A stretch of DNA of 64,000 nt from an uncultured Muribaculaceae bacterium (lineage in GTDB: Bacteria > Bacillota_I > Bacilli_A > RF39 > UBA660). The position numbers were made by a program. Every line of letters starts with the position of its first letter. Position 1 is the stretch's first letter. This document shows, piece by piece, positions 20,601 to 26,600 of the stretch. The stretch lies in assembly GCA_964533935.1 (NCBI GenBank), contig CAZHOG010000002.1, forward strand, positions 23,529-87,528, read 5' to 3'.

Positions 20601-23600
20601 ATCCGAAGCACTTATATTAAATAATGGTGAAGGTGCATGTAAATGTTTATTTAAAGATATTGATGATGGTGTAGTTATTTTGGAAAGATTAAGGCCTGGA
20701 TATACGCTTTCATCTGTTGACGATATAAATGAAAGAATTAGAATATTTAAAGAAGTATCTGATAAATTTAATATTCTATTGGATGATTCATATAAAGGAT
20801 TACCAACTTATAAAGAAATTTTAATGAGATCTAAAACTGTTACGAACTCTGATCCTAAAAAATTTGAAATTATAAAAGAACTACTTGATAAAGCAATTAG
20901 TGAATATGAATTAATAGAACAAAATAATAATTGTGGATATTTACTTCACTCTGATTTATATTCGGAAAATATTATAAAATCTGGTAATACCTGGAAAGCG
21001 ATTGATCCACATGGATTTATAGGGCCTAAGATTCTAGATGAAACAATTTTTATTCAAAAGGAACTTGGTGATACTAATTTTAATTTAGATACTTTAAATA
21101 TACTTTTAGAAAAAATGAGTAAACAATGTAATCATTCTGTTGATGAATTAACTAAAGCATTTTTTGTAAATTATGTATTGAATATATGTTGGGATTTAGA
21201 AGTTAATTTGGATGAAAAACATATTGAAAAATCTATAGAAAAAGCTTCAATAGTAGAAGAAAAGATTAATAAAAAAAATAAAGAATATACGAAAACTTTA
21301 AAAAAATCTTAATATCTATTATTAAGTTTTTTTATTAGAGGTGAATTATGAAAAAAATTAATAATATAGTGTTTGATATTGGTGGAGTTTTAGTTGAGAA
21401 CAGTGAAAATGCAATAAAAACTAAATTTAATCTAACAAATGACGAATTTAAGGAAATTAAAAAGAGTGGTAATATTATTAAACCAAGTTTATTAGGGGAG
21501 AAAAATATTATGGATTGTTTTAAAGATTTAAACAGTAATGATGAAATGTTAGAATATATTTTTAATCCTATTAATTATGATGTAACTATTCCTATAAATT
21601 TTGATTTATTAACAATAATTGATGATTTAAAAGCTAAAGGGTATAAAATATATGCACTTTCTAATATGTCACAAGAAACATTTGATTATATAGCAAAAAA
21701 GATAGACTATAATAATAGATTTGATGGGGGCATTATATCATTTCAAGCACATTTATTAAAACCAAATAAAAAAATATTTGATTTATTATTTAAAAAATAT
21801 AATTTAGATATTGAGGAAACAGTTTATTTTGATGATAATATAATTAATGTTGATAAAGGAAATCTATTAGGAATAGAAAGTATATTGTTTTTAAATAATG
21901 AATGTATTACAGATTATTTTAACAACAAAAATAAGCAATTAATATTGAAATAATTAAAAAAATTTTTAAAATATAATATATTGATTTGTTAAAAAAATTG
22001 AAAGATTATTTCAATGCAGTAACGTGGTAGATGACACCGCTTTTTTTGCTTTCCCAAAATCCCAAAAAAGCAAAAATTTTAATTAAAATTTTGTATCAGG
22101 ATAAGACGATGGTACCACCACCCTCGATTTTCGTTGAAAATACGTGGGAAATGGTGACACCAAACTTATTTTGCACTTGCAAAATTGCTCCCAAATTTAA
22201 TATAAATTTGGATTTAGCCCTTATTTTATATGGGACAAGTTGCTCCCAAAATTGAATTTTTTGATTATTCGTGGGATATTGGCATTTTTTGAGTGGTGTC
22301 ATAAATTATAATTAAAATAATATAAAGTATTTTGATTTTTTATAAATATTTGATATAATCTTTATAGAAATTAACCTTATATGAATTTCCAAACGTATTC
22401 AACTGTCGCACCAAATGAAAATTACACGCACCTTTTACTATTTTGCAGGAGGGTTTGCTGTGTTAGTAGATATAGAATAAAACGCTAGAAATGGCGTTTT
22501 TTATTTGTATAAAATTACTTTAGAAAGAAATAATGATATAATGGAATTGTGGTAAATCTTTAGTTTAGGAGTGTAATTATGAAAAAAGAAATTAAAAAAA
22601 TGGTTAAAGTAGTATATTTTGATGAAAATACGGCAATAGACTATATAAATATTGAAGATGGAGGTTTTTCAAATACTAATAAAAGCGAGTTAAAAAAAGA
22701 TAAAGCAGGTGTAGATATTAAAGGTAATGCTGGAATTGAAGGTAAATTCTCTTTATTTAAATGGTTTTCTGCTAATGCAAGTATACAAACTAATTCAGAG
22801 TTATTAAAGTATGGTGAAAATGTTATGAAGTCTACATTAACCAATACTATTTTGACGGATTATTTAGAAAAAACAAAAATAGATAAGAATGTCAAAAAAT
22901 TTGATAGCTATGTGTTATGTCCAATTGAAAATTCATTAGCCTATTATAAAATGTATACACCATATACAATATTATTTAAAGATGATTTTTCTGACAAATT
23001 AAGCCCAGAAATTGATATAAAAAAACTTGACGAAGTAATTAGTAGTGTAAAAGGTTATTATGAATTTGAAGCTGTTGATAAAAAAGATAATAATATAAAA
23101 TATATTTTTAGATTTAATATAAATGGATTTAGAAATAATTATAAACTTTCAAATATGATGAATATGAATTTATCATATTATGGAATAAAAGTTGGGTATG
23201 GAACTTTAGAACAATACAATGTTGAACATGAATTTGATTTTAATTCAAAAGCAAAAGAAATAACAATAGAGGAAATGAAAAATGGTATACTCGAACAAGA
23301 TAAAACAATACTAGAAATTTATGATATTGTATTAGCGGGTGTAGAAAATGAGTAATTATAATAAAACAAAAGTAACGATTTATTATGGGCCAAGAAAGGA
23401 ATTTGAAAAGATTATTTTAAAAAAAAGAAATAGAGAAAATTTCACTACAATTGTTCAAGAACATGACGAAGAAATTAGAGAAGTAAAACATTATGTCGAT
23501 GGTCAGAAAAATAATAATGAACCTAAAGTGAAAAGAAAAATAACAAACTTAATTATAAATTCTGATGAGTATTCTATGATAACTGAAGGAGCATTGCAAA

Positions 23601-26600
23601 ATTTTATATCTATCTTAGAATATTTTAACATTAATAATGTTTTTATACAAAATCCGCCTGTTATAATTGCTGACAAAATCAAAAAAATATATAAAAATGT
23701 TCAGGAAATAAAATATGAATATAAATATATAAATATATCAAATTTACGTACAATTAAAAAGAATTATGAAAACAGAATAATTGGTCAAGATAGTGCTTGT
23801 AAAGAATTATTAAGAACACTTTTATCTTTTGACAAGTTAGAAGGGTTTGATAAACCTTTAGTAATAATGTTTTATGGTCCTTCGGGAGTTGGTAAAACAG
23901 AAATGGCTAAATTTTTAAGTGAAGAATTAGGCGAAGAATTATTCTACAAACAATTTTCTATGTTTCAAAATCAGGATTTTGCAACATACTTGTTTGGTGG
24001 TAATCATTCACAAAATAGTTTTTCAAAAGAATTGCTTGATAGAAATTCAAATATAATTCTATTAGATGAATTTGATAAAGCAAATAATTATTTTTATTCT
24101 GCTTTTTATCAGTTATTTGATGAAGGAAAGTATGTAGATAAAAATTATTCAGTTGAATTAAATAAATCTGTAATAATTTGTACTTCTAATTATTTAGATA
24201 AAAATGAAATTAGAGAAAAACTTGGTGACCCTATCTTTTTCAGGTTTGATGCTTTTATTAAATTCAATAATTTATCTAAAATTTCAATTGAGAAGATAGT
24301 AGATATAAAATTTGAAAAATATTTAAAAATGCTAAATGAAGAAGATAAAAATATAGTATGTTCTTATAAAATTGATGGTATAGGAATAAAGGATACAATA
24401 AAATATTATTCTGAGCAATTAGTTAATGCTAGAAAAATTGATGTTATAGTTAAGGATTTCATAATGGATGTATTATTAGAACAGGAACTAAAAAATAACG
24501 ATTAAGTAATAAATCTTAATCGTTTTTTATATTTCTATATCTAAATCTTTAAATACATCATCATTAAAGAATTCTTTTAAATCAATTTTCAAACTATCAC
24601 ATACTCTTACAATTGTTAACATTTTTGGATTTTTACTTTTCCCATTTACTACTGATTGTAGCGTTGATTGCGTTAATCCACTAATTATTGCTAGTTTATT
24701 GATACTGATGTTATTTTCATTGCATAGAATTAGTATTCTTTTTGAAATTGCTTCTGAAATTTTCATCATATCACATCACTTTCTATATACTAATTATAAT
24801 TCGTTTAACGCCATATCATTAAGTGACGCATCGTTGACTTTTGCTGTATATTCATATATAATTAATTTGAAGAAAGTTGGGGATTAACATGAACAAAAGA
24901 TTTATTGATAGTAAAGGATTTGCCATACTTTTTTGGGGATTATTTATTATTTTATTATTTATTGGTTGTTATTATGTTAATTTAGTAATGTTTGGATTTT
25001 TTATAGGTTATTTAGTAATAGGAGAAGGAAAAAATGAAAAATAAATTAATATTATGTTTAGTATTATGCTTAGTGTTATTATCAGGATGTACTAATAAAG
25101 AAACAAAAGTTGATAAAGTAAATATAACCAATGAGCAAACAGAAAAAGCAAATGAACAAGAAAAGTTAAAAAATTATTTAATTGAACAAGGATTTATAGA
25201 AACAGAAAATAATTGTTTTAAATTGACTACAAGAGAAATAAATGATGAAAATGGAAAACCTTATAATTGGGATATTACATATTTTTATTTAGATACTTTA
25301 AAGGTTGTTAGAATGACTGCTTTAGCCCCTGTTGGAATAAATTCTACACAAAATTATTCTTATTTAACAGATACGTCAGATGGAAGTTATTCATATTTTT
25401 CTAGTTCTGGAGAATTAGAGAATATTATTAACTATTCATACGATTTTAAGACTGGAACATTGTCGTGTTCTAATGGGTTATGTTCTACTTATCAAACTAC
25501 ATCACAAAGTAGTAAACAATATTTTTTATCAATTATAGAAAATGCTAGTGTTAAAATTGACTTATTAAAATAATTGATTGAAATAACTATGATTAAAGTT
25601 ATTTCTTTTTTTATGCTTAAAAAGTAGGGGGTGGGGTTTAAAGTGACTAGTTATATATACTTGATATACTCTCCCTGTGGCTTTAGCAAAATAATGTGTT
25701 TTCTCTATCATATTTTATTTATATAGTTTATATTTATATGTGAACATATTAATATATAAATTTAATATGTCTTTTACATGAAAAAATATGAAAATTATAA
25801 TTTTAAAATGTAATACTTTTTAATAAGTAATTTATATTTAGTTACATTTTATAATCACAAAATTCATATTAATACTAGATATCGTTAATCATTATTCCAT
25901 TACTAAATGAATAATTAACAATTATATTTTTTTCTGTTTTACCATTGATAGTTCCACAATCAGAAAATATATTCATATCTTTTATTTCTTGTATAAAATT
26001 ACTTTTATATTCACATGATATACCCATTTCTTGACACCAATTTTTATAGTCGATATAAACATCTTTAATTTTTAAATTTTTATTTGATTTTACTAATCTA
26101 TCTTCTATATATTCATTGATTTTATTGCTTTGTTTTTTAAATAGATTTATATCTTCAACAATACATTTTGGTTTTGTTATCATTTTATTTTGATAATATA
26201 TATATAATCCTTCCAAACACCAATTTAATATACCAGATAATTCATCATCTGTTTTTAATTTATCTTTAAGATTAATATCTTGTTCATTTTCATTAAAATG
26301 TTTGTTAAATGATATAATGTTTATTCTATTACTATCAAACAATGTTTTATCGGTAATATAGGGAAGATGATTAGTATTTATAAAAAGTTTAAATTTAGGA
26401 ATAAATTCAATTTCTTTTTGTTGTAAATGACGTGCTGTTATTCTATCTCTACCAGTTATTGTTTTTAAAAATGCATTATCTATTAACATATTTTTAGGTG
26501 GCTCTGAAGTTGATAGAAATCTGCAATTATTTAGCCTAGCAATATCTCCTGATGCTGTTCTAGAGTCTTTATTAAATTTTATTGCTAAAGTTTCTGGCAT

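Follow-up and report, generated by a model that had tools for sequence, protein, structure and literature searches.

The two-gene cassette in the window, by which we mean the whole 64,000-nucleotide (nt) stretch of contig CAZHOG010000002.1 analysed here, is very probably a canonical Dodola defence system. It consists of dolA and dolB and is carried as cargo of a serine-recombinase island that lies next to ssrA, the gene of transfer-messenger RNA (tmRNA), in a very low-G+C genome of the Bacillota type. This identification is based on matches over the length of both proteins. DolA matched the PADLOC model PDLC03837 (E = 1.9e-66, model positions 3-258 of 258), and DolB matched PDLC03838 (E = 1.5e-125, positions 2-374 of 375). 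In addition, Pfam found DUF6414 (PF19952) in DolA with 66.5 bits against a cut-off of 25, and AAA_2 in DolB with 50.6 bits against a cut-off of 27.

The original prediction, which was made from the sequence alone, had pointed to the Dodola architecture (a DUF6414 protein, DolA, with a ClpB-like ATPase, DolB), and the family was right. It had also allowed for a Dodola that is divergent, or for a partner-plus-AAA_2 system outside the known classes. Both proteins match the DolA and DolB models end to end, and these possibilities were rejected in view of the very strong, full-length PADLOC matches. Furthermore, the 258-residue partner had been described as having no recognisable motif, which the DUF6414 match contradicts. 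Two other predictions agree with our results. Both open reading frames (ORFs), of 258 and 385 codons and with an 8-nt overlap (ATGAGTAA, read from the window sequence), lie exactly where they had been placed, and so do the Walker A, Walker B and sensor-1 motifs of DolB. The two ORFs are far beyond chance, given the low profile E values and the length of the reading frames in DNA with about 24% G+C.

Standard defence finders would label the locus Dodola. The closest database relatives of the two proteins are about 60% identical. The exact proteins are already public, without names, in one NCBI contig and two Logan assemblies, and RefSeq names homologues as 'DUF6414 family protein' and 'AAA family ATPase'. 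The window pair is one more sequence in a catalogued family, a fresh example and not a new system.

Distribution of the pair and its proposed cargo slot

DolA was scanned against a collection with a single genome for each of 185,579 species, and 245 matched stretches were confirmed to hold relatives. For counts at the level of the pair, the best 80 of these 245 stretches, from 80 species genomes, were used. They belong to Bacillota, Actinomycetota, Leptospira, Treponema, an alphaproteobacterium and Gastranaerophilales. Every one of the 80 has a DolB homologue immediately 3' of dolA on the same strand, at a spacing of -13 to +38 nt. In addition, the identities of DolA and of DolB to the window proteins co-vary (r = 0.81). 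At the sequence level, the two proteins co-diverge and the pair is obligatory.

We scanned the 148 ORFs immediately flanking the 80 pairs with Pfam and PADLOC. Pfam found ResIII (10 times), AAA_21 (10), RE_endonuc (5), ArdA (3) and TnpV (2), and also type I HsdR domains, D12 methyltransferases, recombinases and Fic. PADLOC found type III restriction endonuclease (5 times), PDC-S06 (5), GajA (4) and MTase_II (3). Meanwhile, 25 plasmids from the Bacillus cereus group, from Enterococcus and from lactic acid bacteria were found to carry DolA homologues; 16 of these plasmids are either mobilizable or conjugative. One further homologue was found on a phage-like contig. The homologues thus occur in variable, defence-rich or mobile contexts (80 species, 25 plasmids) and not in core-genome ones, and the partner matched no housekeeping cofactor or adaptor family. 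Both results favour the defence role that had been predicted.

In several actinobacterial genomes, dolAB stands between an upstream ORF of about 3 kb and a downstream ORF of about 2.6 kb, all on the same strand (Actinomycetota loci L013, L018, L019, L027, L060, L065, L077 and L082). The pooled scans assign these flanking ORFs to ResIII/type III restriction and to PDC-S06-type proteins. This arrangement may be a recurrent composite defence operon.

Experiments have been reported for homologues of the window pair. Dodola was defined by Millman et al. 2022, and the passages of PMC11514479 that cite this work state that the two genes alone protect Bacillus subtilis against SPP1. Homologues also protect Streptococcus thermophilus and Lactococcus cremoris against several phages (bioRxiv 10.1101/2024.10.22.618286). 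By analogy with these homologues, the window copy would be expected to protect its host against phages. A review of February 2026 still gives the mechanism as unknown (PMC12926258). Our literature search found no mechanistic study of Dodola, and a sequence search found no Dodola protein in the PDB.

The element of about 115 nt that precedes dolA (22368-22481) is conserved together with its terminator. It is 84% identical to positions 7710-7824 of the metagenome contig Ga0209373_10000405 (locus L083). A scan for the leader motif gave this contig as its one match in metagenomes and 0 matches in viral contigs. The contig holds a sister island next to a tmRNA gene, which has much in common with the window: the tmRNA 3' end, the 91-residue ORF, recombinase 1 (73% nt and 65% amino acid identity), the 115-nt element and, at the same position, the XRE gene (76% nt and 67% amino acid identity). 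Its tmRNA gene is also in the same place relative to the common recombinase. An operon of a cyclic-oligonucleotide-based anti-phage signalling system (CBASS), at 8294-10932, takes the place of Dodola in L083, again between the 115-nt element and the XRE gene. PADLOC identified its cyclase (E = 4e-97), its E2 protein (E = 2e-28) and its HNH-SAVED effector (E = 1.5e-114).

The original prediction had given the pair a terminated upstream leader. The terminator hairpin is indeed present. As CBASS stands between the same element and the XRE gene in L083, the 'leader' is a part of the island backbone common to both islands; it is neither a part of the cassette nor a Dodola-specific regulator.

The element could also be followed in L003, the closest Dodola locus, which comes from a metagenome-assembled genome of Bacilli. 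There an intact tRNA-Trp gene ends right where the element starts, and Dodola follows the element; a 51-nt core of the window element is 78% identical to L003:9646-9695. The element region spans 9646-9745 in L003 and 7710-7850 in L083. The 115-nt element probably arose from DNA flanking a tRNA gene; what persists could be a remnant of that flank, an att scar or a small RNA. In addition, we noted that the aligned part of the element in the window and L083 reads ...CGCACCA, which resembles a tRNA 3' end. No Rfam match at E <= 1 was found in the region 21900-22650, and the fold stability of the element was unremarkable against shuffled sequences (z = -0.76). A riboswitch or known small RNA was rejected on these two grounds. 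We also rejected a mini-ORF in the leader (AGGAGG, GTG, 6 codons, terminator) as an attenuation peptide, for L003 has GTT at its start among the three sequences compared.

Other Dodola loci share further parts of the backbone. Homologues of recombinase 1 (40-42% identical) and of the 91-residue ORF lie upstream of dolAB in L007 and L008, and a homologue of recombinase 2 (51% identical) lies 4.6 kb downstream of dolB in L003. We propose, as a suggestion for and against which the balance is about even, that the tRNA-flank-derived element and the XRE gene delimit a swap-in slot for Dodola or CBASS on serine-recombinase islands of low-G+C gut Bacilli that target tmRNA or tRNA genes. Dodola and CBASS between the same borders represent a clean example of exchanged defence cargo, and in the window the serine-recombinase island bears an ABC-F resistance-type gene as well.

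Anatomy of the two proteins and possible mode of action

DolB carries GPSGVGKT at residue 177, LLDEFDK at 238 and CTSN at 278. Among 50 DolB homologues, the invariant positions include G177, G180, G182 and K183 of Walker A, D240 and E241 of Walker B, N281 of sensor 1, R299 and the N360-A-R362 motif. As read from its sequence, DolB has a complete Clp D2-type ATPase site. With these catalytic residues intact, it should hydrolyse ATP in a ring. No report that Dodola needs the catalytic residues of DolB was found in the literature. The NCBIfam ClpA, ClpB and ClpV models match DolB by their D2 part alone (positions about 425-790), with 50-72 bits against cut-offs of 885-1232, and the [IL]G[FL] ClpP-docking tripeptide is absent from the DolB sequence. 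This agrees with the predicted D2-only module that lacks the Clp N-domain, D1 and the ClpP loop. DolB belongs to the Clp (HCLR) clade and not to that of the clamp loaders or DnaC.

The D2 pore loop of DolB is shortened and reads Y214-L-F216-G-G-x-H220-S-Q, with a conserved GG-x-HSQ. The motif G[YFW][VI]G does not occur in the DolB sequence, and the tyrosine of GYVG is gone. The ATPase module is preceded by a distinct alpha/beta domain (residues 1 to about 128), in which YYGP, SDEY and QNPP are conserved and which has no Pfam family. In a search of 1.84 billion representatives, this domain was found solely at the N-terminus of DolB-length proteins or fragments, and no other architecture was seen. 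The idea that it is a decayed D1 tier found no support (hhalign against the AAA module, 3.6% probability), and the idea of a TIR-like domain was dropped as neither Pfam nor PADLOC supported it.

DolA is predicted to be soluble, with no membrane segment. Its model consists of an N-terminal strand and helix, a variable disordered loop (about residues 30-79), a long helix and a small beta-barrel, and the barrel gave weak OB-like fold matches to SSB, PriB and RPA. The conserved blocks are KVVYFDE-SA-DY--I--GG, KSTLTNTILTDY, MYTPY, KGYYE, RFNI--FRNNYKL-DL-KMNL-YYGVKVG and VYDIVLAGV, and the acidic residues D15, D21, E218 and D249 are invariant. PMC11514479 gives a Clp-like hexamer (7xbk) for one Dodola protein and weak DNA/RNA-binding matches for the other, which agrees with this anatomy. 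In that paper 'DolA' is the Clp-like hexamer and 'DolB' the DNA/RNA-binding protein, and usual naming has DolA as the DUF6414 protein and DolB as the ATPase. Apparently its A and B labels are swapped.

Invariant residues, the missing tyrosine pore loop, the DolB-only N-domain and a soluble DolA that combines a disordered loop with a putatively OB-like barrel make up a family-wide map for a system without a mechanism, and these features are concrete targets for mutagenesis and structural work. From them a tentative mechanism can be drawn. DolB would assemble as a Clp D2-type hexameric ring and hydrolyse ATP, and its specific N-terminal domain would dock DolA. DolA would be the target-binding or sensor subunit: its OB-like barrel might bind a phage replication intermediate, that is, single-stranded DNA or its binding protein, and its long disordered loop might serve as the part gripped by the ring. 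Using ATP, the ring would then remodel either the bound complex or DolA, and phage replication would be blocked. ClpB, ClpA and ClpC have a tyrosine pore loop that is missing from DolB, and for this reason remodelling or disassembly would be expected and not processive unfolding. Our joint confidence in this mechanism as a whole is low. That a Clp-derived ring without the tyrosine loop acts with an OB-like DolA on phage nucleoprotein or single-stranded DNA, instead of unfolding proteins, is a more doubtful proposal still. If true, it would be a new use of a Clp-type motor in immunity.

Several points weigh against this mechanism or against the defence role itself. No nuclease, NADase or membrane effector was recognised in the pair, which leaves the block of infection unexplained; here the original prediction, which saw no nuclease, TIR or transmembrane effector in the partner, holds. 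The AlphaFold2 model of DolA is of moderate quality (pLDDT 72, pTM 0.69), and its residues 30-79 are unmodelled and poorly conserved save for a short aromatic patch. In addition, Y214 and F216, which are invariant just before the short loop of DolB, could serve as the pore aromatic. Finally, the Dodola of Streptococcus thermophilus gave no protection from a high-copy vector, whereas the same system on a low-copy vector or on the chromosome gave broad protection (PMC11514479; bioRxiv 10.1101/2024.10.22.618286).

This dependence on copy number suggests dosage sensitivity, and it fits a toxin-antitoxin-like module for addiction or abortive infection, in which DolA would be a latent toxin that DolB restrains or activates. 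The main role of such a module would be to stabilise the island, and phage resistance would be a side effect; it overlaps with the defence explanation and does not exclude it. In its favour, coupling between the two genes is tight on mobile elements and plasmids, and the authors of PMC11514479 loosely place Dodola with abortive-infection systems, for which they give no data. However, neither a toxin-like domain nor a membrane segment was recognised in DolA, homologues have been cloned and stably integrated, and the presence of CBASS in the same slot of the sister island points to defence as the selected trait. We consider the addiction module unlikely. The OB-like matches of DolA to SSB, PriB and RPA, together with the D5-type primase 1.4 kb from the pair on an integrative element, might instead indicate that the pair serves the DNA metabolism of the island, with DolA as a single-stranded DNA accessory protein of OB type and DolB as a loader or remodeller acting with the D5 primase-helicase. 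Nevertheless, in the 80 other genomes the pair adjoins restriction enzymes, Gabija and methyltransferases and not replication genes, and homologues of the two genes alone protect heterologous hosts. Furthermore, the sister island keeps the backbone while CBASS replaces the pair, and DolB falls outside the clamp-loader and DnaC group. Such a role is therefore very improbable.

The likeness of DolB to the D2 of ClpB, ClpA and ClpC could also suggest a housekeeping chaperone with its cofactor for protein quality control. This is effectively refuted: DolB has no D1, Clp N-domain, M-domain, tyrosine pore loop or ClpP loop, it scores far below every NCBIfam Clp cut-off, and the family is patchy (245 stretches in 185,579 species genomes, in unrelated phyla and on plasmids) and here lies on an island. 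All three explanations are less likely than Dodola as a defence system acting by way of DolB and DolA.

The island and its surroundings

The features of the locus and of the island are collected in Table 1. The mobile-island context that had been predicted is borne out by the XRE gene, the D5-type primase, the two large serine recombinases and the ABC-F and APH-like genes. The extended -10 sequence TGATATAAT is likely the dolAB promoter; it is a candidate by its match to the consensus, and it is missing from the consensus promoter scan because its -35 region is poor.

Table 1. Features of the dolAB locus and its island (window positions)
Feature	Position	Strand	Remarks
tmRNA gene (ssrA)	14954-15308	+	Rfam RF00023, 115.9 bits; ARAGORN; island starts right after
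91-residue ORF			between the tmRNA gene and recombinase 1
Large serine recombinase 1	15891-17687	+	island left end; Pfam Resolvase and Recombinase
Cargo block 1	17879-21953	+	ABC-F (Lsa-type ribosomal protection), GT2 glycosyltransferase, APH-like kinase, HAD hydrolase; Pfam
Promoter-like site	22332-22359		5' of the 115-nt element
Backbone element of about 115 nt	22368-22500	+	non-coding; terminator hairpin at 22479-22500; left border of the cargo slot
Extended -10 promoter-like sequence	22534-22542	+	37 nt upstream of the dolA ATG; read from the sequence
dolA ribosome-binding site, AGGAG	22567-22571	+	7 nt 5' of the dolA ATG
dolA	22579-23355	+	ATG-started ORF, 258 residues, DUF6414 protein
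dolB	23348-24505	+	385-residue ORF, single-tier Clp D2-type AAA+ ATPase
Terminator-like two-way hairpin	24497-24524	.	10-bp stem, T-runs on both strands; lies where dolB and the XRE gene converge
XRE/Cro-type HTH gene	24527-24769	-	80 residues; right border of the cargo slot; Pfam HTH_26, HTH_3
Small ORFs			between the 80-residue XRE gene and the D5-type primase
D5_N/DUF5906 primase-helicase	25875-28223	-	Pfam D5_N, E = 4e-21
XRE-type regulator (278 residues), then large serine recombinase 2	28750-31106	+	island right end; Pfam
Large serine recombinase 2	29586-31106	+	

To the left of the tmRNA gene lie rnpA, yidC, jag, mnmE and mnmG on the minus strand, and to the right of the island lie core genes (UvdE, GGDEF). 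Gene orientation and GC skew flip at about 14700-15400, with negative skew on the left and positive skew on the right. This flip, together with the genes on the left, suggests that the island lies at or next to the region of the replication origin. The island could not be delimited by G+C contrast, as the whole region has 19-30% G+C. At its ends, the search for direct or inverted repeats gave low-identity, AT-rich matches alone, none of which was convincing.

The ABC-F gene (17879-19390, noted together with 17688-17878) falls into a 90%-identity cluster of 36 members on many contigs. The source names in this cluster are 'ABC-F type ribosomal protection protein' and 'lincosamide and streptogramin A transport system...'. 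It is likely a mobile antibiotic-resistance determinant that travels with the defence cargo. In L083, a Mob_Pre relaxase replaces the ABC-F, GT2, APH and HAD genes of cargo block 1. Between the HAD gene and the 115-nt element, the stretch 22024-22310 is non-coding and has no counterpart in L083. It contains two 34-nt direct repeats (22165-22198 and 22220-22253), each with TTGCTCCCAAA, and short inverted GGTGACACC / GGTGTCAT motifs at about 22153 and 22295. This stretch may be the junction of two nested elements.

In addition, ARAGORN gave an odd tag for the window tmRNA, VHRYKIYYENCLGFYNEFY followed by a stop, with the coding part at 174-233, and the tag of the L083 tmRNA looks normal (AKNIKNVLASVFKSNTVAFA followed by a stop). 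Probably the tag call in the window is wrong or the tag is unusual. Just 3' of recombinase 2, a 380-residue ORF (31153-32295) has no Pfam or PADLOC match and was seen in the island's own sequences alone. Further away, the window contains an ornate large extremophilic (OLE) RNA at 58034-58535 (Rfam RF01071, 214 bits, full model length).

Comparison with known systems

The window pair agrees with Dodola as catalogued in its two families, in gene order and in strand, and its protein sizes are near the model lengths (258 of 258 for DolA and 385 against 375 for DolB). It also has the same patchy, defence-island or mobile distribution. There is no difference in kind; the carrier in the window is a serine-recombinase island at ssrA. 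Meanwhile, protein B of the PADLOC candidate PDC-M37 also matches DolB, over DolB residues 3-379 against 7-386 of 390 (E = 1.6e-22) and with the N-domain included. This match is about 100 orders of magnitude weaker than that to the DolB model. It is nearly full length and suggests that DolB-like ATPases with partners form a larger group.

Accessory regions of phage-inducible chromosomal islands (PICIs) are known to hold defence cargo. The island may likewise resemble the defence hotspots of integrative elements and phage satellites such as PICIs, with a conserved backbone (recombinase, XRE, primase) and a bounded defence slot. The likeness is drawn from one sister element and partial matches in L003, L007 and L008, and no packaging or satellite genes were identified in the island.

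In comparison with ClpB/Hsp104, ClpA and ClpC, DolB resembles the second AAA+ tier (D2/NBD2). However, DolB is a single tier, with no D1, no Clp N-domain, no coiled-coil M-domain and no ClpP-docking loop. In the profile alignment, the 'APPGYV' segment of ClpC corresponds to a six-residue gap in DolB. Human CLPB/Skd3 carries N-terminal ankyrin repeats, keeps the pore-loop tyrosine and works alone. It is a single-tier disaggregase of the ClpB-D2 type (PDB 7xbk, 8zrs), whereas the N-domain of DolB is a different one and its DolA partner is obligatory.

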